Of a stretch of DNA of 64,000 bases, positions 10,317 to 64,000 are shown piece by piece; the stretch's first letter is position 1; every line of letters begins with the position of its first letter. Position numbers and translations under genes: made by a program. The notes below the pieces were generated by a model. The model ran no database searches. It was not told the origin of the DNA and saw only the letters and a program-made list of their open reading frames with translations. The stretch lies in the IMG/VR virus record IMGVR_UViG_3300020358_000003, one strand, 5' to 3'. This stretch comes from an uncultured virus (IMG/VR IMGVR_UViG_3300020358_000003). Lineage: Duplodnaviria > Heunggongvirae > Uroviricota > Caudoviricetes.

Positions 10317-10324
10317 GGTATATT

Positions 10325-25260: not shown

Positions 25261-25550
25261 ACTTGGCGAGACACGCGAACAAAATTATTAAGATTAACCC
25301 TAATATGATGATACCGTATTATCTTATGGCATCATATGCTTATTATGAAGAATCTGATCCAATTTTTTCTGATAGTTACTTTGATAATTTGGCTAAAAAT
25401 ATTTTAAAAGAATGGGATAACTTAGATCATTACCATAAACATCTACTAGATAGAGATGTTCTTGAAGCAGGAAGTTATATTGGAAAATATCCAACAATCG
25501 TAATTGACTCTTTAGATGAATTGAAAAAAGGAAAAAATAATGCTAATTAA
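25257..25550 (+). CDS. stand-alone protein resembling NAD+-dependent DNA ligase subdomain Ia
   Basis: [17 protein letters not shown] matches the YY...P.ISD..YD motif. Confidence 0.6.
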
Positions 25551-26553
25551 TGATGATGTTAAACTTGATTATTCTGACGTTTTGATCAGACCAAAACGAT
25601 CAACACTAACTTCGCGGTATGATGTTGACTTAGAGAGAAAATACAAATTTAAACATAGTAAAAAAACTTGGATGGGAACTCCAATTATGGCATCAAACAT
25701 GGATACTGTGGGAACATTTTCCATGGCAGATGTGTTGACTAATTATAATATGATAACTTGCCTCGCCAAACATTATAATGCAGAAGGTGTATGGCCCACT
25801 AAAATTCTAGAGCCAAATCATTTATGCGTTATGGGTGGAATATCTGATACTGACATTCAAAACACTCAAAAAATATACCAATCAAGTGAAGCATTTTTCA
25901 TTGGTTTAGATGTAGCCAATGGCTACACAATTAGTTTTGTAGATGCTGTAAAGAAAATGCGTGATTTAGAACCAGACGCTACAATTATTGCGGGTAATGT
26001 TGTCACTGCTGATATGACGCAAGAACTAATCCTTGCTGGTGCAGACATTGTAAAAGTTGGTGTTGGTCCTGGTTCAGTTTGTACAACAAGAATTAAAACT
26101 GGTATTGGTATGCCTCAACTGAGTGCGGTTATTGAATGTGCTGATGCAGCGCATGGTATGGATGCTCATATCATTGCGGATGGTGGATGTACTACTTCTG
26201 GTGATATGGTGAAAGCATTTGCCGCAGGTGCAGATTTTGTAATGATTGGTGGTATGCTTGCTGGGCATGATGAATGTGATGGTATTATAGACAATGGTAA
26301 AATGAAATTTTATGGTATGGCGTCAGGCTCTGCGATGGATAGACACAAAGTTGGTCATAGAGAATATAGAGGCGTTGAAGGTAAAACCGTCACAGTAGAT
26401 CATAAAGGGCCAGTGGAGTTAACACTAATTGATATTTTATCTGGCATCAGATCAGCGTGTACTTATGTTGGTGCAAGCAGATTAAAAGATTTATCAAAAT
26501 GCGCGACATTTGTAAGAGTAAATAATACGCATAATACAGTTTATGGCTCTTGA
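25540..26553 (+). CDS. guaC: GMP reductase
   Basis: [53 protein letters not shown]. Confidence 0.93.
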
Positions 26554-48967: not shown

Positions 48968-49921
48968 ATGGTTAAGACATTCACCACAAATACTTTTGCA
49001 AATGTTTATAGTGATGACTACGATGAAGATAAAAGTTTTCAACGTATCCTCTTTAACAATAAAAAAGCATTACAAGCAAGAGAACTTACTCAACTTCAAA
49101 CTATTATTCAAGAGGGTATAAACCGCTTCGGAAAAAATATATTTAAAGAAGGTGCGGCGGTTTCTGCTGGTGGTGTTGCAATTAATAATAGATATAGATT
49201 TATTAAATTGGATACATCTATAAATGCACTACCAGCCAACCCAAGTTCTTTAGTTGGTAAATCTTTTGTTGGGCAAACTTCTGGAGTGACTGTAAAAATA
49301 TTAGAAGTTGTGTTAGCAGCATCCCCAGACCCTGCGACAATATATGTTCAATACACAAATACTCTTAGTGGGGCATCTTCAACTGAAACGATTAACGTCA
49401 CACCATCAGAAGAATTAGTTGAAAATAATGGATCAACTCGTTTTATAGTTCAAACAACTAATACGACAGTTAATCCAGCATTTGGTTTTGGAACTAGATT
49501 TTCAAGTGCAAGTCAAGACTTTTTTACACAAGGTTTTTTTGTTCATGCCTCTCAGCAAGAAATAATAATTTCAAAATATACCAATGATATCTCAAAGGTG
49601 GTTGGTTTTAGAGTAGAGCAAGATATTGTCACAGTAGATGACGATGTTACTTTATACGATAATCAAGGTAGTGTTCCAAACCAAACCGCACCTGGCGCAG
49701 ATAGATTTAGAATTAAATTAGTACTTACGACTCAAGACCTTATAACATCAGGACAAACATTCGTGTATATCGCCAATGTTGTAAATTCAAAAATAACAGA
49801 AAGAGTTACTGGATTAAATCAATATAATTTGATTAACGATTTAATGGCAGTTAGAACAAATGATGAGTCTGGAGATTACACAGTTACACCGTTTTTCATA
49901 AGATTCGAGGATAGCGCATAA
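48968..49921 (+). CDS. virion structural protein, VrlC/DUF4815-like, N-terminal part
   Basis: Y.DDYD.DK.F.RILF, LQARELTQLQ, APGADRF, RTNDESGDY.V.PF. Confidence 0.8.
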   Translation: MVKTFTTNTFANVYSDDYDEDKSFQRILFNNKKALQARELTQLQTIIQEGINRFGKNIFKEGAAVSAGGVAINNRYRFIKLDTSINALPANPSSLVGKSFVGQTSGVTVKILEVVLAASPDPATIYVQYTNTLSGASSTETINVTPSEELVENNGSTRFIVQTTNTTVNPAFGFGTRFSSASQDFFTQGFFVHASQQEIIISKYTNDISKVVGFRVEQDIVTVDDDVTLYDNQGSVPNQTAPGADRFRIKLVLTTQDLITSGQTFVYIANVVNSKITERVTGLNQYNLINDLMAVRTNDESGDYTVTPFFIRFEDSA

Positions 49922-52900
49922 TGGCGAAGATTAAACTAAGGGTTTCTCCCGGTAAAGCATATGTTAATGGTTACAAAATACAGAAAAATATTCCTACATT
50001 TTTATCTGTAAGTAAAGCAACTGCAACCGAAACTATTATAAATGATAGTGTTGGTGCAGCATACGGACATTATGTTATTATTTCGGTTTCTGGTCTAAAA
50101 GGTATTCCAAATATATCGGAACTTGGTGTTGTTCACGTTAAGGATAGTGTTGATTGGGGTGGTAATACTGTTGGTAGTTGTAGAGTTAGAGCAATTGAAA
50201 AATATGATGAAATAGTAGATTCTTCTGGTGTAGCGGTGGTCGCATATAAACTTTATATCTTTGATCTCCAAATGAACTCTACAAAATTCTTTTCTACTGA
50301 TGCAAAGAGTGTTGGTTTAACCACTAGTGATTATGCTAACATATATCAAGAAAACTCTAGGTCTATTATTCATGGCACAAACAATAAAGGACTTCTTTTC
50401 TCAACATCAAATATCAGAGCAAAAGCGGTAACAAATCTATCAATTTATCAACAGAAGAAATTTGCGGCAACTCTCTCAGCAGGTTCTACAACATTAACTT
50501 TCACTTGTGCATCTGGTGAAGTCTTTTCTGATATATCCGATTGGATTGTATCAAATGGTTCTGGTACTATTCAATCGCACAGCGTGACTAGTGGAAGCCT
50601 TAACTCTTCATCAGCAACTATTAATAGTTTAGTCGCTACAGATACGAGTATAGATGAAACATTCACGATTATTGCTTATGTGTATAAAGCATCTGCCACT
50701 CTCGCATCAAAAACAAAACAAACTGGAACAAGAAATTATACGGTTGCTTGGACTGCTGGTGCTACTAATGTCTCAGTGGATTTAAATGAAGTTGATATTA
50801 TATCTGTTCCAGAAATTAGATATGGTGATGAAACTGGCGATATTATTACTGATAAATTTATATTGGATAATGGGCAGAGGGATGCCTTTTATGAAACTGG
50901 AAAATTAAGATTAAAAAATGGTCACTCTTTAGATAACACTACCATTTGGGTTTCATTTACATATTTTGAACATGGTCAAGGAGATTACTTTGCACCTAAT
51001 TCCTATGTTGGTGCTGGGTTTACTTATGATAATATTCAAACATATACTATGGAAAATGGCTCAGAAGTTGATTTAAAAGACGTTATTGATATGAGACCAT
51101 CCAAAGGCCAAAGTGGTAATAATTTCACTCATTCATCTGCAAGAGTTCCAGCAATTCCGAAACCAACATCTCTTATGACAGGAGATATTGAGTATTATTT
51201 GCCAAGATATGATAAATTAATAGTTCAACAATCTGGAGAATTTAAGTATATTGAAGGAACACCATCGTTTAGTCCAAAATTTCCAGATGTTCCATCAAAC
51301 TCTATGGAAATTTATCGTGTGAGGGTCAATCCATTTACATTGAATAGTAAAGATTTAACTTTCAGCATGATTGAAAATAAACGATATACTATGCGTGATA
51401 TTGGTAAAATTGATAAGAGAGTGGATGACTTAGAAGAACAAGTAACACTTTCTTTGCTTGAAGTTGATACTAAAAACATTCAAGTGTTGGATGAAAATGG
51501 AAATCCTAGAACCAAAACTGGTTTCGTTGCGGATAATTTTTCTGATCAAAGTCATATAGATGTAAAAAATCAAGAATATAAAGGGTCAATTGATCCCCAA
51601 GAACAATTCGCAAGACCAAAATTTAGCGCAAATAATATTGGCTTAGTTTATGATGATGCGCTTTCTACTAGAACTACTATAGTTGGTGATAATATTTATT
51701 TAGATTACACACATGCTGATTATTTAGAACAGAGTTTGGCATCTGGAACTGAAAATGTTAATCCATTTATGGTTATAGGATTTAGAGGGCATGTTAAAAT
51801 GTCTCCATCTAGTGATGATTGGAAAGAGGTTGAATATCTCGCTGATAATATGATTGATGGTGGTACAAGACTTAATACTGATGCAGCAGTTCTTTGGAAT
51901 GAATGGGAATGGAACTGGGGCGGTTCTGATTTAAATGGCCTTGATGTTGGTTCGGAAACAACTCAAACAGGTGTCACAGGTGAGCAAGCATTTACTGATG
52001 TAAGTCAATTTACTACTCGCAGTGGAGCATTTGGTACAAGTCGTAGACATTGGAGAAGAACTACTACAGGAGTTGAAAGAACAAACACTACAGTTGTAAA
52101 TAGAATTATCGGAAGCAGTACTGTTAATGAAGTTGTTGGTGATAGACTCGTTCAATGGGCATTTATTCCATTCATGCGTTCTAAAATGATTTTCTTTAGG
52201 GCGGCTGGGCTTCAACCAAATACCGAAATGTTTGCATTTTTTGATCAGATTTCTGTTGCTGATTGGGTTAAACAAGAATCATTTAACGCATATAATTCTC
52301 ATAAACAAACTGAATATGGTAACAGTCAAGTAAACGCAACATCTCATCCTAGTGGTTCATCTAAATTATATAGTGATGGTAATGGTCAAGTTGAAGGATC
52401 ATTTTTTATCCCAAGCACAGATGCTATTAGATTTAAAACTGGTAGTATAGAATTTAAACTAACTGATATAACAAGTGTAGATGATAGTAAAGCAATAACT
52501 ACTGCCTCTGGAATCTTTATTTCTACAGGAGTATTAGATACTAGACAAGAGGATGTTGAATCAACTAGAGTATTAGAAGTTGTCGGAACAACTACTGAAA
52601 GGGTTGATAGAGAAGTCACTGGATCAAATACCGTAAGAATTGATCCTCTTGCACAATCATTTACAGTTAATGAAGAAACTGGAGTATTCATTACTAAAGC
52701 CACATTGTATTTTAAACAAAAAAGTTCCAATATGCCTGTTTGGATTCAAATGAGGCCAATGGTAAACGGTTTTCCATCTTCTGATGTAATTCTTCCTGGT
52801 TCTCAAAAACTACTAACATCTTCTCAAGTTTCTATAAGTGCAGATGCTACTGTTGGAACAACATTTGAATTTGATGAACCAATTTATTTAAAAGGTAATA

Positions 52901-54255
52901 CTGATTATGCTATAGTTTGTTTAACAGATAATACTGATTATTTACTTTATACTTCAAAGGTTGGTGAGTTTGTTTTAGGTACTACAGAAGAAAAAATAAA
53001 CAGACAACCATTTTTAGGATCACTATTTAAATCGCAAAATAGCGTAACTTGGGAAGCAGCACAATGGGAAGATATGAAATTCAAATTGGAAAGAGCGTCT
53101 TTTGATACAACTGGCGGTATTGCTACTCTCAAAAACGCTAATGTACCTGTAAGAGTTCTAAGTAATAATCCTATTACGTTGTTCGCAAAGGGCGCACCCA
53201 CAACTGTTGTTGGTAAAACAACTATTAAGGTAAATGCTCCACATCACGGATTAATTATTGGTGATAGTGTTGTAATATCAGGGGTGGTAGATGCAACATA
53301 TGGTGTTGCTGTTAACAATGGTGGTACAGCACATACTGTAACAGAAATTGATGCTAGTAGTTTTGCGTTTGTCTCTGCTGCCTCTGCAATAACTACACCT
53401 GCTGGAACTGCGGCAAGCGGAACACCGTTATCTCCAATTTTAACTGGTGGAGTTGCTGTAACTATAACACCACAATATTCTTACAATTTGGCTTGGCCTA
53501 ATATTGAAACTTTATCGCCTATAAATTCATCTATTAATTTTACAGAAAAAGGTATTAGTGGAAAATCTTATGCTGGTAGTGAATCTCCATATGTTCAATA
53601 CTCAACAGCAACAGCACTTATACCAAAATATAATAACTATTATGCTTTCCCAAGATCAATAGCACATTCTACAAGAGAAGGTAGTATGGGCCACTCTTCA
53701 CTTCTCGTTTATGGAACCATGACAACTACTTCAAACTTTGTTTCGCCAGTAATTGATATGCAAAGAGCATCTGTTAATCTAATTGAAAATATTATTGATA
53801 GTCCAGTTTCACAAGCGACTAGTGGCGGTAGTAAGGTTGTTCTTGATGTTGCAACATCTGGATATGAAACATATATACCAGAAACTGATGCCCTAAACGG
53901 ATCAGCATCTGCAAAACATATCACGAAATCTGTAAGATTATTATCTCCTGCAAATGGATTGAAAGTTTTTGCTGGTATTAATAAACCATCTGTTTGTGAA
54001 GTTGAGTTGTATTATAAAGCACAAATGGGTGACGTTGAGTTTGACAGTGTTCCTTGGAATTTAGCAACAGTAGATACTGCTATGCCAAGCGATGATGATA
54101 ATATTACATTTAGGGAATATATTTACACTATTGGTGGGGATACAGGCACAATGCCTGATTTTACTAAATTTAAATTAAAAATAGTAATGAAATCAACAAA
54201 TTCTTCCAGAGTTCCAGCCATCCGCGATTTAAGAGCAATAAGTTTAGGTGATTGA
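49921..54255 (+). CDS. virion structural protein, VrlC/DUF4815-like, C-terminal part
   Basis: VSPGKAYVNGY, DNGQRD, RYTMRDIG.I..R, GFVADNF, DPLAQSF, GSLFKSQN, SPVID. Confidence 0.85.
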   Translation: MAKIKLRVSPGKAYVNGYKIQKNIPTFLSVSKATATETIINDSVGAAYGHYVIISVSGLKGIPNISELGVVHVKDSVDWGGNTVGSCRVRAIEKYDEIVDSSGVAVVAYKLYIFDLQMNSTKFFSTDAKSVGLTTSDYANIYQENSRSIIHGTNNKGLLFSTSNIRAKAVTNLSIYQQKKFAATLSAGSTTLTFTCASGEVFSDISDWIVSNGSGTIQSHSVTSGSLNSSSATINSLVATDTSIDETFTIIAYVYKASATLASKTKQTGTRNYTVAWTAGATNVSVDLNEVDIISVPEIRYGDETGDIITDKFILDNGQRDAFYETGKLRLKNGHSLDNTTIWVSFTYFEHGQGDYFAPNSYVGAGFTYDNIQTYTMENGSEVDLKDVIDMRPSKGQSGNNFTHSSARVPAIPKPTSLMTGDIEYYLPRYDKLIVQQSGEFKYIEGTPSFSPKFPDVPSNSMEIYRVRVNPFTLNSKDLTFSMIENKRYTMRDIGKIDKRVDDLEEQVTLSLLEVDTKNIQVLDENGNPRTKTGFVADNFSDQSHIDVKNQEYKGSIDPQEQFARPKFSANNIGLVYDDALSTRTTIVGDNIYLDYTHADYLEQSLASGTENVNPFMVIGFRGHVKMSPSSDDWKEVEYLADNMIDGGTRLNTDAAVLWNEWEWNWGGSDLNGLDVGSETTQTGVTGEQAFTDVSQFTTRSGAFGTSRRHWRRTTTGVERTNTTVVNRIIGSSTVNEVVGDRLVQWAFIPFMRSKMIFFRAAGLQPNTEMFAFFDQISVADWVKQESFNAYNSHKQTEYGNSQVNATSHPSGSSKLYSDGNGQVEGSFFIPSTDAIRFKTGSIEFKLTDITSVDDSKAITTASGIFISTGVLDTRQEDVESTRVLEVVGTTTERVDREVTGSNTVRIDPLAQSFTVNEETGVFITKATLYFKQKSSNMPVWIQMRPMVNGFPSSDVILPGSQKLLTSSQVSISADATVGTTFEFDEPIYLKGNTDYAIVCLTDNTDYLLYTSKVGEFVLGTTEEKINRQPFLGSLFKSQNSVTWEAAQWEDMKFKLERASFDTTGGIATLKNANVPVRVLSNNPITLFAKGAPTTVVGKTTIKVNAPHHGLIIGDSVVISGVVDATYGVAVNNGGTAHTVTEIDASSFAFVSAASAITTPAGTAASGTPLSPILTGGVAVTITPQYSYNLAWPNIETLSPINSSINFTEKGISGKSYAGSESPYVQYSTATALIPKYNNYYAFPRSIAHSTREGSMGHSSLLVYGTMTTTSNFVSPVIDMQRASVNLIENIIDSPVSQATSGGSKVVLDVATSGYETYIPETDALNGSASAKHITKSVRLLSPANGLKVFAGINKPSVCEVELYYKAQMGDVEFDSVPWNLATVDTAMPSDDDNITFREYIYTIGGDTGTMPDFTKFKLKIVMKSTNSSRVPAIRDLRAISLGD

Positions 54256-54256
54256 T

Positions 54257-54466
54257 ATGTTATTTTCTAAAATTCAAGGCGAAAAAAATTACGTTAAAGA
54301 TTTAGAATCTGGTGCTATAATTAATAGTGATTGCGTAGAAATTGAAAAAGCGAAGGTAAGAAAGAAAAAGATGCGAGAAGAAAAAGAAGAATTTCAAGTA
54401 TTAAAATCAGAAGTGGCAGATATGAAAAATCTGCTTGTAGAAATTTCCAGAAAGTTAGGTGACTAA
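54257..54466 (+). CDS. small coiled-coil hypothetical protein
   Basis: KD..SGAIIN...LKSEVADMK.LL; typical position after the VrlC-like gene. Confidence 0.7.
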   Translation: MLFSKIQGEKNYVKDLESGAIINSDCVEIEKAKVRKKKMREEKEEFQVLKSEVADMKNLLVEISRKLGD

Positions 54467-55668
54467 TGGCTAGATTAGAAAATGTTGATCTCAGTAATTC
54501 AGTAAATGCTTGGAGAATGAAAACAAATCTTACCGCATCTTATGTTGGTGATTTGGATGATTTAAATACCACTGACAGTGGAAGTATTGTAGGTGCAGTA
54601 AATTCAATTCAAACTAAATTTGCTGTTAATGGTGAGGTGCAAGGATTAGCAAGAACTGCATTAGCATTATCAACTGGTGGGTCTGGTACATATTCAAGTT
54701 TATCTTATGTAGATTCAGCAGGAATTGGTGGAGGGGTTTTCACGTTTACTTGTAATCCACTCACGGCAAGCGATATTCCTAATTTAGATGCTGGAAAACT
54801 AACAACTGGAACTATTAATCCATCATTAATACCAGCAATAGATGCTGGGGTTATAACAACTGGAACATTAGCAACTGCGAGATTACCATATCTATCTGCA
54901 AATCAAACCACTGCTGGGCAATTTGATAGTGATCGTATCCCATCTTTACACGCTAATAAAATTAATAGGGGAACTTTTTTAATCGGAAGAATACCTGATA
55001 TTCCTTCTAGTAAAGTAGTGAGTGATGGTACTACAATACCATTAGAAGCAATGGACCCATCACTTGTAAGAAATAATCTTTCCACATCATACACTGGTAC
55101 AAGAGTATATAATGGAACTAGCACTTTTTACAATACGGTTACTGTTGGGACTTCTGCTCTTCCTGTTACATCAACATTTAATGGTCAAATAAATCACGCT
55201 GGGCATATTATTCCAGACACAGATAACTCTTACAGTGTGGGTAGTTCATCATTTAAATACGCAAATATGTATGCGACAACATTTAATGGTAATGCTACGT
55301 CTGCTAATTTCGCTGACCTTGCGGAGAAATATACCACAGATGAAGATTATCCAATAGGAACTGTTATGATGGTTAATTTTGATACTAATGGTGAAACTAC
55401 AAAATGCGGCAATTCTGGTATTCCAGTTGGGGTTATCTCAGCAGAACCAGCGTTTTTAATGAACGCTGAAGCAGAAGGACAAGCACTTGCTCTTAAAGGT
55501 AGGGTTCCTGTTAGAGTATGTGGTCAAATTAGAAAAGGTGAGGCTGTTTATACTTGGAAAAATGGGTGTGGTAGTACAGAATTTAATGGCGCACATATGA
55601 TTGGAATATCACTTGAGACCAGTGATATTGAAGATGAAAAAATGATTGAGTGTGTTCTTAAACTTTAA
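54466..55668 (+). CDS. tail fibre protein with a C-terminal intramolecular chaperone (peptidase G2-like) domain
   Basis: About five 17-aa IPxLxAxKxTxG repeats; ADLAEKY...GVIS..PA..MN...ALKGRVPV. Confidence 0.75.
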   Translation: MARLENVDLSNSVNAWRMKTNLTASYVGDLDDLNTTDSGSIVGAVNSIQTKFAVNGEVQGLARTALALSTGGSGTYSSLSYVDSAGIGGGVFTFTCNPLTASDIPNLDAGKLTTGTINPSLIPAIDAGVITTGTLATARLPYLSANQTTAGQFDSDRIPSLHANKINRGTFLIGRIPDIPSSKVVSDGTTIPLEAMDPSLVRNNLSTSYTGTRVYNGTSTFYNTVTVGTSALPVTSTFNGQINHAGHIIPDTDNSYSVGSSSFKYANMYATTFNGNATSANFADLAEKYTTDEDYPIGTVMMVNFDTNGETTKCGNSGIPVGVISAEPAFLMNAEAEGQALALKGRVPVRVCGQIRKGEAVYTWKNGCGSTEFNGAHMIGISLETSDIEDEKMIECVLKL

Positions 55669-55676
55669 ATTGTCTA

Positions 55677-55705
55677 TTGACATTCTAAATTATAAGGTTT
55701 ATAAT
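55677..55705 (+). promoter_or_regulatory. consensus sigma70 promoter of the rSAM/oxygenase cluster
   Basis: TTGACA-17-TATAAT, then AAGGA RBS. Confidence 0.85.
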
Positions 55706-55731
55706 AACTTTAGTCATTAAAGGATTTTGTT

Positions 55732-56250
55732 ATGATCACCAAAAGTCAATTCTTGAGTATAATCTCAAGTGATATTGCTTATGAGCAAAATATGGTCTAT
55801 GCCATAGACGAAAATGGTAGAGAACATCTCATGAAAAATTTTGCAGATACACTTGCAAATAAAGATACAAATTCAATAAAAATTGAAAGAATGGAAGCAT
55901 ACAACTCGGAAATTTTTTCCTATTGTTTAGAACTAGAAGATATGTATGAGCATAATGGCCCAATAACATGTCATTTATTTTATGCTGAAAAAAATGCTCA
56001 TTCATTCAAAAAACATACTGATCCAGATAATGTTGTTATATATTGTTGTGAAGGTATGAAAACTATAGCAATGGAAGGTCATACTATGGGTGGTGAGCCA
56101 GTATTTACTTTGAAGGCAGGTGCAATACTACATATTCCTGCGAATACTCTTCACCAAGCATTTAATGAACATGAGGCACTTACTTTGAGTTTTGGCTTAG
56201 AAAAATTTATAGAGGATAAAATGAATAGTGTTTTGGTCAGTATACCTTAA
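55732..56250 (+). CDS. JmjC/cupin-4-like oxygenase
   Basis: SFKKHTD (HxD), EG.K, HIPANTLH, LSFG. Confidence 0.75.
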   Translation: MITKSQFLSIISSDIAYEQNMVYAIDENGREHLMKNFADTLANKDTNSIKIERMEAYNSEIFSYCLELEDMYEHNGPITCHLFYAEKNAHSFKKHTDPDNVVIYCCEGMKTIAMEGHTMGGEPVFTLKAGAILHIPANTLHQAFNEHEALTLSFGLEKFIEDKMNSVLVSIP

Positions 56251-57247
56251 AACCACAGAAACTTGTCAATTAAACTGTAAGCACTGTTTTACTTCTGGTA
56301 GCAATGGTGCTAAAATTTATTGGAATACTGATAAGATAGTTGATTGGATACATAGATTTCGTGAAGAAAAACCTGCAAAGGGTGATGGTATTCATTTAGA
56401 GTTTCATGGAGGCGAACCATTTCTTGTACCTGTAGGGCAAATGAGAAAGGTGTATGATGCTTGTGATGGTCTTTGGGATAATATGAGTTGGGGAGCCACA
56501 ACCAATTTAGTGTATAAATTAAAAGATCAGCATAGAGAATTTATAAAAGGTCCACTTAGAAATAGGTTAGGAACTTCATGGGACCGTAAGATAAGATTTG
56601 ATAATCAAAAACAATATAACTTGTGGCATAAAAACGTCAAGTCTCTTTTAGCAGATGGTGTAACTATACGTTTGTTTATTAGTCTTACTAAAGATACTTT
56701 AGAAAAAGACCCTATTGTATTATTAAGATGGTGTAGAAGATTGGGAGTTCAAGAGGTATCTTTAGAGAGATTGACCAATAATGGTTCAGCGCGTGAAGCA
56801 TCAGAAATATTTCCATCAAATAAAGAGTTAGATGCTTATTTTTTGAAAATGCACCAGCAAAGTGAAGAATATGGAGCGCGAGATTGGTTTGAAAATGATT
56901 TTTTTGAAAATATATATGCTAAATTTGAAAAAACTCTTACGACATGTGGTACTTTTTGTAGAGATTGCGAAACAAAACTATTCACGATAAATGGTGATGG
57001 TACAATAAGTGGTTGTCCAAATTCAGCACCAGAATTTCAGTTTGGAACTTTAGATGATCCCATTAAAACTCTTATAAATAGTCCTAGAAGAATAAGAACT
57101 ATCATTGAAGAAAAAATGAGAAACCCCAATTGTCTTTCTTGTCCTGTTGCGAAATATTGTGGTGGCGATTGTCATCAATTAGGATGGGAAGGTGATGTGT
57201 GTGGCGCACCTAAAAGTTTAATGATGGAATTGGCAAAGAATGTCTAG
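56228..57247 (+). CDS. radical SAM/SPASM domain protein
   Basis: CQLNCKHC, FHGGEP, CRDC...DG...GCP, CLSC....YCGGDC...C. Confidence 0.92.
   Translation: MFWSVYLKTTETCQLNCKHCFTSGSNGAKIYWNTDKIVDWIHRFREEKPAKGDGIHLEFHGGEPFLVPVGQMRKVYDACDGLWDNMSWGATTNLVYKLKDQHREFIKGPLRNRLGTSWDRKIRFDNQKQYNLWHKNVKSLLADGVTIRLFISLTKDTLEKDPIVLLRWCRRLGVQEVSLERLTNNGSAREASEIFPSNKELDAYFLKMHQQSEEYGARDWFENDFFENIYAKFEKTLTTCGTFCRDCETKLFTINGDGTISGCPNSAPEFQFGTLDDPIKTLINSPRRIRTIIEEKMRNPNCLSCPVAKYCGGDCHQLGWEGDVCGAPKSLMMELAKNV
57073..57080 (+). promoter_or_regulatory. possible internal T4-type late promoter
   Basis: TATAAATA about 180 nt upstream of ORF 57258; could be chance in AT-rich DNA. Confidence 0.4.
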
Positions 57248-57257
57248 GAGATAAAGA

Positions 57258-58097
57258 ATGGCGATATCAGACCCTATTACAGAAAATCCTGTAATTACAA
57301 AATACAGACAGTTTGTGACTGATAAAATTAATAGTGCTATCGTGTTTGGTGATGATAATGTACCAGACGCATCTGTTGCCAGTTATTTTCATGGCACTAG
57401 AAGTGGTGTGACCACTAGTCCTGATTTAATAGATGGGCCTATAACAGCATCAAATATTTTTGCTGTTCTATTGAAGGATGTTAACAAATATACTAGAATT
57501 AGAAAATTTAATGCTACAAGAACGGTAACAGGTATTCCAGGTGGCAACACACCAATCCCAACACGCAATAGTTCTTCTACTGCAAATGCAGATGCTGAAA
57601 AAAACTTTGCGTGTGAATGGCAATCTGCTTTAGATGATGAAATTGCCTCGCGAAGTTTTAGGGGAAATACGCCCACATTTGGTGACCATATTTCAGCGTT
57701 CTTCACAAAATATAATACCTATGGAATTGGTGGAAAGCCTACTACAAAGCAAGAAGCAAGAGACCTACAACCTGCTGCTCAAAGTGCATGTGTTGCAGCA
57801 ACTCAAAAATATGGCGTAAGTCTGAGAACTGGTGCTAAAATCAATACACCTTTAAATGTTAGTGGAGTCGGTATTCTAACAGCAAAACATAGTTTTTTTA
57901 TTGATTCTAGTGATGTTGATCATTCAATGATTGTAGCAGGAGATTTAATTGATGATGCTGATATGGAGTCATTATTCAATAACCTATATCAAGCATGGAA
58001 AAGTGTTGCATTAGACGGTACGGTAACAGGATATAGCGAGTCTGTGTGTCATTCCAATTGCCACTCTAATTGTCACTCATCAAGGAATAGGAGATAA
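57258..58097 (+). CDS. putative rSAM substrate protein with a C-terminal (CHSx)3 repeat
   Basis: AGGAG RBS; ends VCHSNCHSNCHSSRNRR; flanked by rSAM genes. Confidence 0.75.
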   Translation: MAISDPITENPVITKYRQFVTDKINSAIVFGDDNVPDASVASYFHGTRSGVTTSPDLIDGPITASNIFAVLLKDVNKYTRIRKFNATRTVTGIPGGNTPIPTRNSSSTANADAEKNFACEWQSALDDEIASRSFRGNTPTFGDHISAFFTKYNTYGIGGKPTTKQEARDLQPAAQSACVAATQKYGVSLRTGAKINTPLNVSGVGILTAKHSFFIDSSDVDHSMIVAGDLIDDADMESLFNNLYQAWKSVALDGTVTGYSESVCHSNCHSNCHSSRNRR

Positions 58098-58104
58098 ATT
58101 TATT

Positions 58105-58758
58105 ATGAATAATTATGTTACAGTGACTGCCCCTCTAGGTATTGATGACTTGCAGAAATATTTTTCTGATGACAGCATTAATTTTATTATTGATTATGAA
58201 AATAGTGAGTTACAAGGTGAGAAATTGCTTGTCTATTTAAGCAACTTAGAATTACCTTGTGATATTAAAGTTGAAAGAAATGATTTAGAAACCCTTGCAA
58301 AAATTTATCTCCAGTTTCCGCAAATATTAAATATTAAAGTTTTAGAAGAATTTATTATTAAGGTTCTTTTGGTAAGAAAAAAACTATCTTTAGAATCTTT
58401 AGATTACTATCAAGATTTCATTGATGATAATGAAGAAGTGATTGATACTTGGATTAAAAAGTTGGACTCATTGACACTTTATAATATGTATATTATCCAA
58501 GATGATGAAATGAAAGATTGGGTACTATCCCATAAAGAAGATGATACTGATGATATAAAAGGTATAAATTTTGTATCTGTATTAAAACATGAAGATTTTT
58601 ATTACTACTACAATGGTTTAGATGAAAAAAACTTGACCTATTATTCAAAATATTTTAATGAATATATGTTTAATGGGAAAGGTTTATTCGATTATTGGTC
58701 CTATGAAAAAAATCCAATTTTCCTATTAACTTGGGGAGTTGGTGCAGGAGAAGTTTAA
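58105..58758 (+). CDS. hypothetical protein of the rSAM cluster
   Basis: Acidic 217-aa ORF; AGGAG RBS. Confidence 0.75.
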   Translation: MNNYVTVTAPLGIDDLQKYFSDDSINFIIDYENSELQGEKLLVYLSNLELPCDIKVERNDLETLAKIYLQFPQILNIKVLEEFIIKVLLVRKKLSLESLDYYQDFIDDNEEVIDTWIKKLDSLTLYNMYIIQDDEMKDWVLSHKEDDTDDIKGINFVSVLKHEDFYYYYNGLDEKNLTYYSKYFNEYMFNGKGLFDYWSYEKNPIFLLTWGVGAGEV

Positions 58759-59799
58759 TTGGATTTAGTAGATTTTATTTTAAGAGATAAAAGAGATAAG
58801 CAGCAAGAATACACAATTCATTTATTTGAATTTTGTAATCTGTCTTGTCCATTTTGCTGGCAAGACCATGACAACATTGTGGGTATTGATACTGTATTGG
58901 ACAAGTTGGAATCAATAGAAAAGTTTTTTCAAAAAGAGATGAGGAAACATGTAGTTTTAAACATCATGGGTGGTGAGATATTCGCTGATGAAATTTTTGA
59001 TGAAAAATTGAAGAACGACTATATTGCTCTTGCCCAAGGAATAGTAGACTTAGGAAAAAAATATAAGTTTGAGAGTATAGGAATTAATTGGGTCACTAAC
59101 CTAGTAATTAGTAAAAGAGACTATGTGCGAGATATATTGAAGGCGTGTAGAGATATGGGCTGTAACTCAAAACTCGTAACTTCATATGATCCTAGAGGTA
59201 GATTCAATAAACCAAACTTAGAAATTTTCAAAGAAAATGTATATGATTTCTGGGATGATCTTGAAGGAATTGGTGTTCTTTTAACCAAGTCTAATATTAA
59301 ATATTGGTTGACTGATCCTAAAGATTTTATGCACGAATTATATCATAAGGGCGTAAAGGTTTATGCTGATTATTACATGCCTGATTGTCAAGCAGAACGA
59401 AGTATGCCAACAGACAAAGAACATTATGATATTTTCACGCATTTTATAGATAAGTATCCTAAAATTGAGCCTATTCGTTCTTGGATAGAAAATGAGCGTA
59501 ATGTTGTTTCATGCAGATCATCTAAATTAGTTCTTGAGGATGGAACCATGTGTTTGTGTGGAAATCTTGTTCAAGAGCCAAGAGATAAAGCGATGTACAA
59601 AACAGACATACAGAAGGCTAATAACAAACCTATTGAAAAGGCTTTCCTTGAAAAGTATAATTGCTCTACTTGTGAATATTTTCATAGATGTACTCTTGGG
59701 TGTTTCATGGCACATGATTATAAATATGCAGAAGAGGTTTTTGATGAATGTGTCTATAAAATGACACATAGATACATTGAAAATAAAGGATTAAGATGA
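58759..59799 (+). CDS. radical SAM protein with a SPASM-like C-terminus
   Basis: CNLSCPFC, MGGE, C...DG..CLC, CSTC....RCTLGC...C; TTG start after AGGAG. Confidence 0.88.
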   Translation: MDLVDFILRDKRDKQQEYTIHLFEFCNLSCPFCWQDHDNIVGIDTVLDKLESIEKFFQKEMRKHVVLNIMGGEIFADEIFDEKLKNDYIALAQGIVDLGKKYKFESIGINWVTNLVISKRDYVRDILKACRDMGCNSKLVTSYDPRGRFNKPNLEIFKENVYDFWDDLEGIGVLLTKSNIKYWLTDPKDFMHELYHKGVKVYADYYMPDCQAERSMPTDKEHYDIFTHFIDKYPKIEPIRSWIENERNVVSCRSSKLVLEDGTMCLCGNLVQEPRDKAMYKTDIQKANNKPIEKAFLEKYNCSTCEYFHRCTLGCFMAHDYKYAEEVFDECVYKMTHRYIENKGLR

Positions 59800-59800
59800 G

Positions 59801-60436
59801 ATGTTTTTTTATAAAAATGGCGATAAATCTCCAATTAGCCAATCCTTTATAAATAGATTTCCAACAAGAAAAAGATTAACTAATCCAATTAAAGAAATTG
59901 ATATAGAGTATAATGTATGCCATACAGTATTTGATTATTTAGTTGATACTAAATTACCACCATGCATTCATTTTTTAGATAATTTTTTGAAAAGTGAAGT
60001 GTATGTGTTTAGTGTTCCACTATCAAGTAATTTATTATCTAAAGTTAATAGTAAATCTATGATGGAAGATTATACTACTCAATTTACTGGATCACCCAAA
60101 ACAGTAGTAAATAATGATTATGAGTTAGGATGGATTGGCATAGAGAAAACTAAAAATTATACAATAATGTCAAATATTCAAATAAATGGAATTTATAGAG
60201 ATTGCTTAACCAGAAGGCAAGAAATAGATTTTTATAAAACTATGATCAAGTTTTGTAAAGGTGAAATATTGAATATGCCAATTTATGTGCCTACAGCCGA
60301 AACACTATACACACAAATGAAAAAAAATCCTGCACATCCTGATAGTGCTATAATGGAAACACCTTACACATCTAAGGTTTTAAAGGGGTTCACAAAGATA
60401 CAATTTATGAACATGGAGTTTTATAAAAATGATTAA
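59801..60436 (+). CDS. hypothetical protein
   Basis: 211-aa ORF coupled to both neighbours. Confidence 0.65.
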   Translation: MFFYKNGDKSPISQSFINRFPTRKRLTNPIKEIDIEYNVCHTVFDYLVDTKLPPCIHFLDNFLKSEVYVFSVPLSSNLLSKVNSKSMMEDYTTQFTGSPKTVVNNDYELGWIGIEKTKNYTIMSNIQINGIYRDCLTRRQEIDFYKTMIKFCKGEILNMPIYVPTAETLYTQMKKNPAHPDSAIMETPYTSKVLKGFTKIQFMNMEFYKND

Positions 60437-62096
60437 CGTAGGTTATGTGAATCCAACAGGAATACCCTCAAGAGCAGAATTTAACTATCATTGGATGCTT
60501 TTTAAATGTTTTTATGAAGATTATGGAAAATATCCAGAAAAAGTTACTTGGGTGGAGCCAATATTCAAATGGAATGAAGTTACAATACAAGATTGTTTGG
60601 ATAATGTTAAAGGGTGTTCCATTGTATTTTTTACCAACTATGTTTGGAATTATAAAATTAACCAAAGGATACGAAATGGTCTTGATCCAGATACCATAGT
60701 AGTTATGGGTGGTCCTCAACAAGACCCTGATATAATAAAAGATTATGACTATGTTGCAGACCCTCTTGCTCCAGGAGAAATATTTGTACAATACTTTCTT
60801 GATATGTATCTAGAGGATTCTGTTGATAAGAAAAAGATTCCATTTTATTTGGGTAGTTCTTTAAAAATTCCTCTTCCATTTGGACATACGAATGTATATA
60901 AGAGATGTGAAGATTATTTTACCAAAGAATATGAACACTTCATAAAAAATATAGACCTATATGAGCGAATAACATTGATATATGAAAGCACTAGAGGATG
61001 CCCATTTAAGTGTTCTTATTGCGAGTGGGGTGGTGGTACTGGAACAAAAGTTCTAAAAAAACCTATGGCTGTGATAAAGGATGAAATGGAATTTATAGGG
61101 CGGTTCAAGGGTGTGCATATTGATTTGTGTGATGCTAATACAGGAATGTTTAAAGAACGTGACCGAGAAATGATGATGCATATGGTGGATAATGGAGTTC
61201 AAATTGGTGAAAATCTATCAGTATTAAAAACTTTAAAATTGGAACAGAAAAAAGAAATGCTTGATTTTATGATTGAGCATGACATTACTCGCCAAGTCAT
61301 CAGTATTAGTTTACAGTCTATTTCAGAAGAAGCGAGAAGAATAGCAAATAGGAGAGACCTTAATGTTGAAGAAACCTATGAATTGGTGGATCATTTAACT
61401 AGTAAATGGAATAATTTTAAAGAAAAGGAATTATGGTTAGATTTAGAATTAATTTTAGCGATGCCAGGGTCTACATTAAAAGATTTTTACGAAGAATTTA
61501 AGGTATATTATAGAGTTGGATATAATGAAGGAAAAGATTGGGAAGAATGGAAAGGTCTTGATGTATGGGCAGACACTAGATATCCCTACATGGTTTTACC
61601 AGCAACTGAGGCCGCTAGTAAAGAATATCAAGAAAAATATAAAATAAAAACCTCAAAGGTATTGACACAATTTGATGGCAACTATAGTGGAAAATGGGAT
61701 AATGTTGAAGTAAATCCAATATATGGTGATGTGGCGTATGAATATGATACTATAGTTGAATGTTTTTCATATACGTTTGAAGAATATTTAGAAATGTTTA
61801 TAATGAATTTATTCACGCCACATGTAGGTTTAAGTTTTATAAAAGAGTACACCACTTATGAAAACGTGGCTGAAGTGGCAAAAGAGTTATGGAATATATT
61901 GAATGATATACCAATGTTTTTTGTTTACAAAGAACTGATAAGAAATATATTTCTTGATAATAATTCTCATAGTATAGATAAGTTTGATGTTGGACACTTT
62001 AAGGATAAAGATATTGTTAATGAGATGAAAATATTACTAGAAAAAAATGAAGAAATGATAAAGGAAAGATTAGATGAATTCTGTAGAAATTTATGA
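60429..62096 (+). CDS. radical SAM protein with a B12-binding-like N-terminal domain
   Basis: YVWN...VVMGGPQ, YESTRGCPFKCSYCEWG, DAN.G, SLQS, ELIL.MPG.T. Confidence 0.85.
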   Translation: MINVGYVNPTGIPSRAEFNYHWMLFKCFYEDYGKYPEKVTWVEPIFKWNEVTIQDCLDNVKGCSIVFFTNYVWNYKINQRIRNGLDPDTIVVMGGPQQDPDIIKDYDYVADPLAPGEIFVQYFLDMYLEDSVDKKKIPFYLGSSLKIPLPFGHTNVYKRCEDYFTKEYEHFIKNIDLYERITLIYESTRGCPFKCSYCEWGGGTGTKVLKKPMAVIKDEMEFIGRFKGVHIDLCDANTGMFKERDREMMMHMVDNGVQIGENLSVLKTLKLEQKKEMLDFMIEHDITRQVISISLQSISEEARRIANRRDLNVEETYELVDHLTSKWNNFKEKELWLDLELILAMPGSTLKDFYEEFKVYYRVGYNEGKDWEEWKGLDVWADTRYPYMVLPATEAASKEYQEKYKIKTSKVLTQFDGNYSGKWDNVEVNPIYGDVAYEYDTIVECFSYTFEEYLEMFIMNLFTPHVGLSFIKEYTTYENVAEVAKELWNILNDIPMFFVYKELIRNIFLDNNSHSIDKFDVGHFKDKDIVNEMKILLEKNEEMIKERLDEFCRNL

Positions 62097-62604
62097 CGAT
62101 TTTTTAAGCCAAGAAGAACTCAACAAGATAAAACATAAGTTTTCTTTTGATAAATCAGCAATGGATGATCTGCCAAGATTTAATATGCAAAAAAATATGG
62201 CAATAAATATTAAAAATCATATGGATGATTTTCCAAATTTAAATAAGGCAAAAACTATTGCGTTATGTAAAGATTCAAATATAAGTAAAATTGCTATATC
62301 ACATTTAATTAAGATCGTCAAGTATGAAGAAGATAATAATGAAAATATGATTTGGGAACCACATCATGATGGAACAGAGTCTAAAATTATTACTTTATTT
62401 TTTATAGATATAGATAATAGTGGTTGGCAAGGTGGTGAGTTAGATATTTATGATTCTCTTGATATTTTTCAATATCCAAAAAATAAAACTAGAATAGAGC
62501 CGAAAGTAGGTAGATTAGTAGTTTTTAATAGTTCTATGGTGCATTGTATTAGACCCTATTTCGGAGATAAACCAAGAATGACTGTAAGTGTGGGTTGGGA
62601 GTAA
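62074..62604 (+). CDS. 2OG-Fe(II) oxygenase (prolyl hydroxylase-like)
   Basis: PHHD, W.GGEL, P..GRLVVF...HC.RP...R. Confidence 0.85.
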   Translation: MNSVEIYDDFLSQEELNKIKHKFSFDKSAMDDLPRFNMQKNMAINIKNHMDDFPNLNKAKTIALCKDSNISKIAISHLIKIVKYEEDNNENMIWEPHHDGTESKIITLFFIDIDNSGWQGGELDIYDSLDIFQYPKNKTRIEPKVGRLVVFNSSMVHCIRPYFGDKPRMTVSVGWE

Positions 62605-62605
62605 A

Positions 62606-63160
62606 ATGAATATTGATAAAAATTCTGGATGCTTTATTGAGAATAATCCTAATATGTTTATTTATCTACAAGACACGTTGCCAAAATTAAGATGGTTGCA
62701 TATAAAAAGAAGTGATTCAAAAAAGTCTGATAGATGGCAAAGTGTAGCATGGAATTATTATTTTCACTCTATGAAAAGTAAGATGTTAAAAACTGCTGAT
62801 TTACTTTGCGAAACCTATTTACCGTTAGAAACGGAAAAGAACTTAGATTATTATACTATGTGGAATGGTACGGATACAGGTTCGTGTGAATGGCATCATG
62901 ATACTGAGGGTGGAAATTTACAATTTAATTTATATTTTACAGACTTACCACCTAATAATGGTGGTGAGATAATGTATAGAAATATGCAACAAAATAAAAG
63001 AATAACTGCATTTCATTCACCTAAAAAATATGATATAGTGATGGGAAGTGTTGGTGATGATTTAAAGTTTCAACATAGAGTTGAGCATACAAAAGAATTG
63101 AAACAAGAAAGAATAACAATGCTTTTTAGGTTTAAAGTGAAGAATTCACCATGGACCTAA
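62606..63160 (+). CDS. 2OG-Fe(II) oxygenase
   Basis: WHHD, LYFTD, GGE, F.HRV...R. Confidence 0.8.
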   Translation: MNIDKNSGCFIENNPNMFIYLQDTLPKLRWLHIKRSDSKKSDRWQSVAWNYYFHSMKSKMLKTADLLCETYLPLETEKNLDYYTMWNGTDTGSCEWHHDTEGGNLQFNLYFTDLPPNNGGEIMYRNMQQNKRITAFHSPKKYDIVMGSVGDDLKFQHRVEHTKELKQERITMLFRFKVKNSPWT

Positions 63161-64000
63161 TCATTAAACCAACAGAACTATGCAATTTTAAATGCTCTTT
63201 CTGTTCTTCTTCTAAAATTACTCAAGAGGATAACACTGCCGTACTTGATTTGAATAAGATATTTAAATTTCTTAAAAGATTTCCTGAAACGCAAACTATC
63301 ATCGTAAATGGTGGTGATCCTTTAATGATGAGGCCAAATTACTATTGGAAGTTAATAGAGTTTTTAGATAAGCATGACATGCCAGCGACGATATCTCTTA
63401 CAACTAATTTGTATCCTTTTTTAATGAAACCAAAAAAATGGGTAGAACTCTTTAATCATAATAGAATTGGTGTTGGAACTTCATTTCAATATGGTGGTGG
63501 TAGGCTCAAGGGAGATTACAGTGAATTTACAGAAGAAGATTTTTGGAAATGTTCTGATGCGATGCTTGAGCATGTAGGCTATAGACCATCATTTATTGCA
63601 GTGATTGTGGATGAAAATGAAGATACTGTAATACAGACTGTAGAACTTGCTAAGAAGATGGATGTTGTTTGTAAGGTGAATTATGCTATGGCATCTGGTT
63701 CTCAATCTGCGCCATATAGACTTTCAAAAATATACGAAAGATATATTCAAATTTGGAAAGCAGGTTTAAGTGATTGGGAACATAACACTCAACAAATGTT
63801 AAATAGGTTGAGAAAAAAGCCAACCATATGCCCTCAGTCCAGAAACTGCGATAGTGGTATTCGTAATATCCAACCAGAAGGTGATTACTATTCTTGCGGT
63901 TCTTTCGGTGATGATTTTGACAAACCAATAGATTTTGAATATGAAATGAATGGGGGTTTTGAAACACCTCTCAGTAATGATTTGAGTTTAATGAGTCTTA
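63151..64000 (+). CDS. radical SAM/SPASM protein, truncated by the window end (not in the ORF track)
   Basis: MDLIIKPTELCNFKCSFC, NGGDP, TTNL, CPQSRNC...PEGDYYSCG. Confidence 0.88.
   Translation, partial: MDLIIKPTELCNFKCSFCSSSKITQEDNTAVLDLNKIFKFLKRFPETQTIIVNGGDPLMMRPNYYWKLIEFLDKHDMPATISLTTNLYPFLMKPKKWVELFNHNRIGVGTSFQYGGGRLKGDYSEFTEEDFWKCSDAMLEHVGYRPSFIAVIVDENEDTVIQTVELAKKMDVVCKVNYAMASGSQSAPYRLSKIYERYIQIWKAGLSDWEHNTQQMLNRLRKKPTICPQSRNCDSGIRNIQPEGDYYSCGSFGDDFDKPIDFEYEMNGGFETPLSNDLSLMSL

Follow-up and report, generated by a model that had tools for sequence, protein, structure and literature searches.

A radical SAM gene module beside the tail fibre gene of an uncultured phage and the putative virion protein that it may mature

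Introduction

What does a tailed phage do with a run of radical S-adenosylmethionine (rSAM) enzymes and iron-dependent oxygenases encoded next to its tail fibre gene, and with the one non-enzymatic protein in their midst? The question is raised by a 64,000-nucleotide stretch of DNA, referred to here as the window, from an uncultured member of the Caudoviricetes (IMG/VR record IMGVR_UViG_3300020358_000003). An original prediction, made from the letters alone, described from position 55,677 to the window end a cluster resembling those for peptides made by the ribosome and modified after translation (RiPPs), with a JmjC-like oxygenase, three rSAM enzymes with SPASM-type tails, a B12-type rSAM enzyme, two 2-oxoglutarate (2OG)-Fe(II) oxygenases, two unassigned proteins and a protein ending in a Cys/His repeat. 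All ten open reading frames (ORFs) were confirmed, co-directional on the + strand from 55732 to the window end at the starts given beforehand (Table 1). We refer to the Cys/His-tailed product as the CH protein and to the two unassigned ones as U1 and U2. Our reading is that the module is probably a phage pathway that chemically matures a virion protein associated with the baseplate or fibre, the CH protein, with its C-terminal tail as the target, and not a source of released peptide. How phage particles are chemically altered after translation has hardly been explored. Jumbo-phage genome papers, in the sections available to us, annotate cupin, rSAM and 2OG genes in gene lists and give them no functional reading (PMC8066314, PMC5468394, PMC11898562), and beyond such annotations we found no description of radical SAM tailoring of a virion protein in the literature searched.

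Results

Conservation and distribution of the module

Relatives of the CH protein are encoded on 181 IMG/VR contigs identified by a search for its tail pattern; 80 loci were taken, and the 63 with at least 2 kb upstream and at least 9 kb downstream of CH are here called full loci. Hidden Markov models were built from the window proteins, with rSAM3, rSAM4 and p148 taken from relatives, and were run over all locus ORFs. The window ends inside rSAM3. The nearest record, G001, gave no match to 62000-64000, and the operon end is read from the relatives, in which rSAM3 is followed by a fourth rSAM gene (rSAM4), a gene for a 148-aa protein (p148) and a second fibre gene. The order is near-fixed: cupin, rSAM1, CH, U1, rSAM2, (B12-rSAM), (2OG oxygenase, variable), rSAM3, (2OG oxygenase), rSAM4 and p148, with accessory genes in parentheses. 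All seven core partners of CH are found together in 55 of the 63 full loci. The module core is cupin, rSAM1, CH, U1, rSAM2, rSAM3, rSAM4 and p148, and the B12-rSAM enzyme, the 2OG oxygenases and U2 (59801) are accessory. U2 homologues occur in just eight of all loci.

A search in the opposite direction with an rSAM3 profile gave 365 IMG/VR contigs, from which 80 loci were kept, 56 of them with at least 8 kb upstream. A canonical tail ORF is present in 51 of these 56, within 10 kb and specifically 2.8-7.4 kb 5' of rSAM3. The five exceptions have a compact, enzymes-only order (cupin, rSAM1, rSAM3, rSAM4, p148, rSAM2); the two longest records encode two tandem CH genes of ~127 aa just past the flank, and the other three are short fragments. 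This compact variant, with tandem CH genes of ~127-137 aa several kb from the enzyme block, is seen at L087 6062-6879, G004 C1 24262-24677 and G008 C1 2853-3265, and no U1 was detected near its loci. Among 50,697 isolate-phage records, rSAM1 and rSAM3 match the identical 15, belonging to 12 phages (Atu_ph07, Phosso, pPa_SNUABM_DT01 and nine RSL2/RSF1-like phages), and all 15 encode CH in the same gene order. Separation of the rSAM and oxygenase genes from the CH protein, which the original prediction had named as counting against it, is therefore not what we find for the rSAM and cupin genes. Searches of the isolate phages with near-identical DNA and by tblastn with the window CH protein returned no match; the family was reached there via the rSAM matches and a closer query. 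Prokaryotes, represented by one genome for each of 185,579 species, yielded six candidates, of which three are real, all on contigs of metagenome-assembled genomes (MAGs) that carry the module.

The module is widespread and almost phage-only. T4-like, phiKZ-like and Rak2-like phages, as well as contigs binned with predatory bacteria, are the backgrounds among which it moves, and in unrelated phage lineages it is kept at unusually high enzyme identity: rSAM3 is 53-59% identical between the marine T4-like window and soil jumbo phages, and rSAM1 is 39-51% identical to proteins from the 12 jumbo phages. Genes annotated as dihydrofolate reductase stand between rSAM2 and rSAM3 in RSL2-like jumbo phages (L002 16042-16578; L009 18406-19583).

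Table 1. Features of the module in the window, with the number of full loci (of 63) in which each partner gene was detected
Feature	Coordinates	Strand	Status	Basis	Full loci
Tail-fibre-like protein, C-terminal chaperone-like domain	54466..55668	+		phrog_22593; tail-fibre family phrog_19602 on residues 248-385	
Sigma70-type promoter, TTGACA-17-TATAAT	55677..55705	+		63-nt gap 5' of first gene	
Cupin/JmjC-like Fe(II) oxygenase (Cup)	55732..56250	+	core	PF08007, phrog_8014	61
rSAM1, full SPASM domain	56228..57247	+	core	conserved Cys, TIGR04085	62
CH protein, 279 aa, presumed substrate	57258..58097	+	core	family profile, AF2 model	
Hypervariable helical-hairpin insertion of CH, residues ~95-215	57540..57900	+		alignment, model	
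Invariant tail CHSNCHSNCHSSRNRR, residues 264-279	58047..58094	+		stop codon directly 3'	
U1, conserved protein	58105..58758	+	core	phrog_20767	62
rSAM2, radical SAM/SPASM-type	58759..59799	+	core	conserved Cys, phrog_1802	63
U2, lineage-specific	59801..60436	+	accessory	weak, below-cut-off Pfam match only	6
B12-type (class B) rSAM	60429..62096	+	accessory	TokK, CysS, KedN5 matches	25
2OG-Fe(II) oxygenase a	62074..62604	+	accessory	PF13640, 32.6 bits (cut-off 27)	
2OG-Fe(II) oxygenase b	62588..63160	+	accessory	HxD...H...R conserved	
Any 2OG oxygenase			accessory		50
rSAM3, radical SAM/SPASM, cut by window end	63151..64000	+	core	PF04055	62
rSAM4 (from relatives)			core		63
p148 (from relatives)			core		57

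The CH protein and its C-terminal tail

The CH protein, which ends in CHSNCHSNCHSSRNRR, matches no Pfam family and no NCBIfam model at E<=0.1. A profile built from four close relatives reaches 190 cluster representatives (50% identity) at E<=1e-3 among 1.84 billion proteins. Most family members are about 180-200 aa in length (median 195). Across 52 diverse members the mean column identity is 24% and the sole invariant columns are C264, H265, C268, H269, C272, H273, R276, R278 and R279. The pattern C[HY]xxC[HY]xxC[HY]xxRxRR-stop ends 225 of 239 distinct family proteins, with the logo [VI]-C-H-[SA]-[SN]-C-H-x-[SN]-C-H-[GS]-[SN]-R-[GS]-R-R, in which the fourth position of the three successive repeats is S 84%/N 16%, S 71%/N 27% and S 88%/N 8%. 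This motif is far from chance, and an invariant tail on a divergent body has the look of a core-peptide-like signature.

An AlphaFold2 model from the 52-sequence alignment is compact alpha/beta (predicted local distance difference test score, pLDDT, 88; predicted template modelling score 0.83). The tail begins at the end of the last strand, where modelled pLDDT falls to 69 and then 53, and is therefore probably flexible. Foldseek found no match to the model in the PDB at E<=0.001, and a wide VIA-align search gave generic helical-hairpin matches only (Z<=7.6, residues 103-192). Two uncharacterized phage proteins of a length usual for the family (178 and 173 aa) match in BFVD at E<=0.001, followed by the 296-aa homologue of Atu_ph07 (E 1.6e-3). 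The window protein carries a hairpin insertion of ~90 residues, modelled as helices 105-130, 143-152 and 164-190, that is absent from the ~180-200-aa members and makes up the variable block when close relatives are aligned. A 3.7-kb contig from a ~91%-identical relative (run X17) swaps 57620-57900 for 267 unrelated letters with both flanks kept, a cassette-like replacement of this insertion, and retains rSAM1, U1 and rSAM2.

CH is the fastest-evolving gene of the locus. A comparison among four close relatives gives identities of 83-98% for the enzymes and 54-76% for CH, and the ratio of nonsynonymous to synonymous substitution rates is 0.22-0.38 for CH, the highest of the locus, 0.15-0.29 for the fibre gene and 0.02-0.05 for the four rSAM genes tested.

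A CH homologue in virions

The virion proteome of Atu_ph07 lists gp170, a hypothetical protein of 31.89 kDa, with eight unique peptides and 35.16% coverage (Table S5, PMC6102473). The CH homologue of this phage (L001 11047-11937) computes to 31.89 kDa, and its neighbours likewise compute to the listed masses (gp176, 66.07 kDa; gp177, 21.66 kDa), so that the gp170 numbering is secure. The fibre-like gp176, homologue of the 54466 product, is also in the table, and rSAM proteins gp171, gp168 and gp165, cupin gp172 and U1 homologue gp169 are absent from it (PMC6102473). gp170 was seen in gel bands 1-9, with its highest abundance in band 1 at the top, where proteins of 75-139 kDa peak (Table S5, PMC6102473), which fits, and does not prove, an SDS-resistant or covalent form of high mass. 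The original prediction had left a choice between a modified virion component and a metal-binding or bioactive peptide, and it is the first of these for which evidence now exists.

Radical SAM enzymes

The five rSAM proteins belong to the radical SAM superfamily: CX3CX2C is kept in at least 92% of the homologues of rSAM1, rSAM2, rSAM3, rSAM4 (C11/15/18) and the B12 enzyme, and PF04055 (cut-off 29.5 bits) is exceeded by rSAM3 (41.2), rSAM4 (33.2) and the B12 enzyme (35.9), with rSAM1 (19.3) and rSAM2 (23.5) scoring under it. Membership of the SPASM type, defined by a C-terminal array of seven Cys (CX2CX5CX3C and flanking Cys) for two auxiliary clusters, is indicated for rSAM1 by model TIGR04085 (34.8 bits, cut-off 27; eight conserved C-terminal Cys), and for rSAM2, which scores just 15.8 bits on that model, and rSAM3 by conserved C-terminal Cys arrays. 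The conserved Cys are C13/C17/C20, C244/C247/C263 and C302/C305/C311/C315/C325 in rSAM1; C26/C30/C33, C252/C267 and C302/C305/C311/C315/C331 (CX2CX5CX3C) in rSAM2; and C11/C15/C18, C227/C233/C249 and C287/C290/C296/C299/C316 (CX2CX5CX2C plus four more) in rSAM3. Only four C-terminal Cys are conserved in rSAM4, making it a partial, twitch-like form at most.

The best full-length matches of rSAM1 are TIGR04083, PapB, DynA and anSME, and those of the full 344-aa rSAM3 (from L003) are DynA and then anSME; rSAM2 matches phrog_1802 (2.8e-41). None reaches a characterised maturase equivalog, DarE and CteB-type enzymes included, the top scores being 41.6 bits for PapB (cut-off 340), 56.8 for DynA (450), 46.7 for anSME (349), 46.3 for TIGR04083 (300) and 20.7 for QhpD (453). 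Matches to MoaA, NrdG and viperin are confined to the first 60-90 residues around CX3CX2C (18-36 bits), and PADLOC likewise gave short N-terminal matches of the rSAM core to viperin models, as well as candidate family PDC-M51A for the B12 enzyme. A nucleotide- or cofactor-modifying role was rejected as the principal reading because such matches span the CX3CX2C region only. The nearest families are peptide- and protein-maturing SPASM enzymes, and the second objection foreseen in the original prediction, a match to nucleotide- or cofactor-modifying families, is not what we find for the best matches.

The 60429 product aligns over residues 40-355 with positions 45-364 of TokK (7kdx, E 2.9e-15) and also matches CysS (9n1b, 2.6e-13) and the KedN5 family (4.5e-24; 84.6 bits, cut-off 700). 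Its C191/C195/C198 are conserved and Pfam gave no match to a separate B12-binding domain. It is a probable C-methyltransferase, judged from these alignments.

Oxygenases and candidate helper proteins

The cupin exceeds the cut-off of PF08007 JmjC_2 (29.8 bits against 22), with only residues 125-158 aligned, and matches phrog_8014 (4e-28). H95, D97 and H141 are kept in at least 92% of 51 homologues, consistent with membership of the JmjC/cupin class. Both 2OG oxygenases have the HxD...H triad and the 2OG-binding Arg of the 2OG-Fe(II) superfamily: H97, D99, H157 and R168 are conserved in 62074, and H103, D105, H163 and R175 in 51 homologues of 62588, which scores 19 bits on PF13640, under the cut-off of 27. 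A second paralogue of 62588 (46-49% identical), absent from the window, lies between the 62588 homologue and rSAM3 in close relatives, namely L003 (15885-16469), L004, L005 and L010-L012.

U1 has phrog_20767, a family of unknown function, as its sole family match (E 7e-52). Neither the U1 nor the p148 profile hit anything below E 0.2 among PDB sequences; in the Atlas U1 had no match at 0.9 or above, the best scores (0.86-0.87) being a lead at most, and a single-sequence fold was unusable (pLDDT 47.5). Pfam, NCBIfam and PDB-profile searches of U1, U2 and p148 gave no signal of a RiPP recognition element (RRE) or of PqqD. The HxsD model TIGR03976 matches none of 32 p148 proteins at E<=10, though the p148 consensus contains 'LLND', and p148 was rejected as an HxsD; nor was TIGR03976 found in two MAG genomes or 14 control genomes. 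By hhalign, U1 is unrelated to CH and p148 to U1 (probabilities 2.4% and 0.7%). A similar short motif, ...(A/N)PI..(D/N)(L/I)...(Y/R)F, is seen at the N-termini of U1 and CH, the hhalign alignment at that 2.4% probability covering 28 columns.

Operon layout and genomic context

Junctions between the ten genes measure, in order, -23, +10, +7, 0, +1, -8, -23, -17 and -10 nt, indicative of a tightly coupled operon. The consensus sigma70 promoter that had been proposed for it stands up: TTGACA-17-TATAAT at 55677-55705 is the sole 12/12 match within 49000-64000, and both hexamers are unchanged in the window and five close relatives as the spacer varies, which argues for promoter function. As a class, promoter-like sites are not enriched in 49000-64000 (62 found against 77 +/- 8.5 expected from shuffles). 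The T4 late-promoter motif TATAAATA occurs 12 times in the window against 12.6 expected. One copy lies inside rSAM1 at 57073-57080, 185 nt 5' of the CH start codon; as a late promoter for CH it was rejected, a motif count at chance level carrying no weight. RNA-library contigs cover 57598-58089, which does not prove transcription, and none lie over 58519-62025 in run X15. Contigs can establish neither absence nor level of expression, and such libraries may contain DNA.

The remainder of the window is that of a T4-like myovirus, with a gp32-like single-stranded DNA-binding protein, tail tube, head closure, gp5-like hub-lysozyme and baseplate wedge subunits. The baseplate genes are followed 3' by a giant DUF4815/phrog_358 protein (48968-54255, two ORFs), a 72-aa ORF and the 400-aa fibre-like protein, so that the module occupies the T4-like site for peripheral baseplate and fibre genes. 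Atlas clusters matching the C-terminal part of the 54466 product partly carry PF11962 Peptidase_G2, an autoproteolytic fibre-chaperone domain (score 0.98, a lead only). A fibre-like protein, resembling the 54466 product over its last ~130-150 residues, ends no more than 120 nt 5' of the cupin in 50 of the 74 loci that were eligible, and one further locus has it within 1 kb. In four phage lineages that are unrelated to one another, the genes on the flanks of the module are for baseplate and fibre. The module always stands in the host-recognition part of the genome.

Three further observations concern the surroundings. Contigs binned with Bdellovibrio (L091 4421-8163, and L089) carry three tandem Peptidase_S74 fibre-like genes 5' of the module and may be prophage, mis-binned phage or predator genes. 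The ORFs at 48968-49921 and 49921-54255 abut and match phrog_358 positions 5-318 and 572-1615 of 2056, the DUF4815 protein being seemingly split or two-piece. The first 30 kb encode sugar or nucleotide-sugar enzymes (sulfotransferase-like, nucleotide-sugar epimerase, UDP-glucose-dehydrogenase-like and dehydrogenase) and a 2OG-Fe(II) oxygenase (ORFs 1704-2399, 3700-4665, 10292-11101, 17709-18359 and 25540-26553), which look like a glycan- or metabolite-modifying block.

Discussion

A proposed maturation pathway

We propose that the substrate is the CH protein, a folded body with a flexible 16-mer, (Cys-His-x-Ser/Asn)x3-Arg-x-Arg-Arg, on which it would be modified. In the infected cell rSAM1-3 (SPASM) and rSAM4, with a motif for a single auxiliary cluster, would abstract hydrogen atoms, and cross-links of the thioether or carbon-carbon kind at the three Cys-His units are the most likely outcome; a side chain would be hydroxylated by the JmjC-like cupin, and U1 and p148 could act as dedicated helpers. 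Lineage-specific extras, in the window a TokK-like B12-rSAM methyltransferase and two 2OG oxygenases, may decorate the product further. The finished protein would then be built into the baseplate or tail-fibre region with its fast-evolving helical hairpin facing outward. We consider Cys-centred, thioether-type cross-links by the SPASM enzymes the most likely chemistry, followed by side-chain hydroxylation by the cupin and 2OG oxygenases and, where the B12 enzyme is present, C-methylation. The strict co-occurrence and the maturase-like enzymes lend support to the dedicated phage modification pathway of the original prediction, and maturation of a whole protein by rSAM enzymes has precedents in HxsA (PMC13128918) and CrpA (PMC13692751), each as far as described in the source sections available to us.

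Several points weigh against this proposal. No modification has been observed on any family member, and the chemistry is guesswork, as none of the enzymes scores as high as the curated threshold of a characterised maturase. U1 and p148 appear to lack an RRE or HxsD signal. Enzymes of the rSAM class are oxygen-sensitive and the cupin and 2OG oxygenases need O2, yet both kinds are encoded in one operon and would have to work in one cell. Presence in virions rests on one distant homologue, about 30% identical over the tail region, and migration of gp170 in band 1 on one gel of one proteome in which many proteins smear across bands, gp321 (~36 kDa) also peaking there (PMC6102473). The sigma70-type promoter is suggestive of early or middle expression ahead of the late structural genes, an unusual timing for a structural protein. 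Finally, many contigs are common to the CH-selected and rSAM3-selected sets, which are therefore not fully independent.

Alternative explanations

The enzymes may instead act elsewhere, on the tail fibre or on a sugar, nucleotide or cofactor, with CH an unmodified metal-binding structural protein or an Fe-S or electron-donor partner. This we regard as unlikely. The fibre gene directly 5' of the module in 51 of 74 loci, the capacity of CxxxCxxxC with His to ligate Zn, Fe or a cluster, the weak N-terminal matches to MoaA, viperin and NrdG and the sugar-modifying enzymes of the first 30 kb would suit it. The fibre is missing 5' in 23 of the 74 loci, however, while CH stays linked and has rSAM1 and U1 as its neighbours in nearly all loci; matches to nucleotide and cofactor families span ~60-90 residues at 18-36 bits, whereas peptide-maturase matches are full length; and an accessory redox protein is not expected in virions or to evolve so fast. 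A true RiPP, in which the 16-mer is modified and then cut off as a diffusible metallophore, toxin or signal and the 260-aa body serves as leader or scaffold, seems very improbable. A divergent body that ends in an invariant C-terminal 'core' is how precursors are classically laid out, the enzymes are similar to RiPP maturases and a Cys3His3 product could bind metal, and the 'RiPP-like' label is a loose fit. A canonical RiPP cluster has a short precursor of leader and core, a leader protease and/or exporter and an RRE domain; here the precursor is a confidently folded protein of 279 aa (pLDDT 88) with no leader found, and Pfam, PHROG and NCBIfam gave no peptidase or transporter match among the conserved module genes. 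Moreover, CH evolves like a host-facing structural protein in a module set among baseplate and fibre genes, and its homologue gp170 was recovered from virions at 35% coverage (PMC6102473).

Distinctly unlikely, in our view, is that the module serves counter-defence or entry by mimicry of the effector of the HXS antiphage system, the matured His-x-Ser/Arg tail acting in the periplasm on DNA or envelope during genome delivery and not as a structural stabiliser. HxsA, a protein with HxS repeats rich in basic residues, is matured by two rSAM enzymes and a small protein, with the modification inside its final repeat (SHRSS), and is a DNA binder active at DNA entry, according to the part of the report available to us (PMC13128918); the CH tail is H-x-[S/N] three times followed by RxRR, and a CH homologue travels in the particle (PMC6102473). 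No homology was detected, the scores on the HxsB and HxsC models being far under their cut-offs and CH and p148 giving no hit, the invariant Cys has no counterpart in the available description of HxS repeats (PMC13128918), and functional evidence is absent.

Implications

A modified tail would represent a new substrate family, probably with new rSAM reactions on Cys/His/Ser/Arg motifs, and a new layer in the building or tuning of the phage adsorption apparatus, with a possible link to the HXS defence, which stops DNA from entering. Bolder, and in our judgement doubtful, is the idea that phages weld or arm their particles by radical chemistry, with four rSAM enzymes turning the tail into a cross-linked, cationic and possibly metal-binding warhead that either bonds covalently into the baseplate or fibre or acts in the periplasm as a viral mirror image of the HxsA gatekeeper at DNA entry. 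Covalent bonding into the baseplate or fibre would explain why the 32-kDa gp170 peaks in the top band. Whichever of the two held, it would be the first case of a virus structural protein modified enzymatically by radical SAM chemistry. Carrier phages that can be cultured exist.

Comparison with known systems

Four known systems resemble individual enzymes of the module. Among ranthipeptide and sactipeptide maturases, PapB, the freyrasin maturase (NF047865), reportedly acts on repeats of Cys-x3-acceptor; residues 4-317 of rSAM1 align to positions 4-318 of its 330-position model and the tail Cys are regularly spaced by four. The match stays far under the cut-off, though, and here a folded substrate is served by several non-redundant rSAM enzymes and oxygenases. 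Another SPASM rSAM enzyme that acts on a Cys of a full-length protein is anSME (TIGR03942), to which rSAM1 and rSAM3 match over most of their length. The sulfatase motif is C-x-[PA]-x-R, and the last repeat of the CH tail, C-H-[GS]-[SN]-R, has the same Cys/Arg spacing; the differences are scores of 37.7 and 46.7 bits against 349, Gly or Ser at the Pro/Ala position and no sulfatase fold. TokK and CysS act on small-molecule antibiotic intermediates, whereas the 60429 enzyme is an accessory of what we take to be a protein-tailoring module. The PF08007 hydroxylases YcfD/RoxA, NO66 and MINA53 hydroxylate Arg or His of ribosomal proteins. The cupin likewise scores above the family cut-off and has the HxD...H iron triad, and Arg and His are invariant in the tail; with 172 aa, however, it is much smaller, and only 34 residues align.

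Closer in kind are two systems in which an entire protein is matured. CrpC of Methanococcus voltae is an rSAM-SPASM enzyme with three [4Fe-4S] clusters that introduces ranthionine thioethers into the Cys-rich protein CrpA (PMC13692751). Compared by description only, from the part of that report available to us, the likeness lies in a SPASM enzyme that modifies Cys of a protein-sized substrate encoded adjacent to it. CrpC/CrpA comes from an archaeon and pairs a single enzyme with a substrate generally rich in Cys, whereas the phage set has four rSAM enzymes, a fixed 16-mer with three Cys and a virion context. The nearest published working analogue is the HXS antiphage system, in which the rSAM enzymes HxsB and HxsC together with HxsD mature the HxS-repeat protein HxsA, with +8 Da in the last repeat (PMC13128918). 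Membership fails on model scores (TIGR03976-03979, with the LYW and LLNDYxLRE motifs as the criterion for HxsD): rSAM1 reaches 31.6 bits on HxsB (cut-off 370) and rSAM3 32.9 on HxsC (267.9). HXS is a bacterial defence and the present genes are a phage virion gene set with four rSAM enzymes and a cupin; here each repeat has an invariant Cys, the repeats form the very end of the protein, and neither a signal peptide nor a peptidoglycan-binding domain was observed. What the two would share, on the available description of HXS (PMC13128918), is the working plan, in which several linked rSAM enzymes (four genes here) and small helpers mature a whole, protein-sized substrate bearing a tandem run of His-x-Ser (His-x-[Ser/Asn] in CH) flanked by basic residues.

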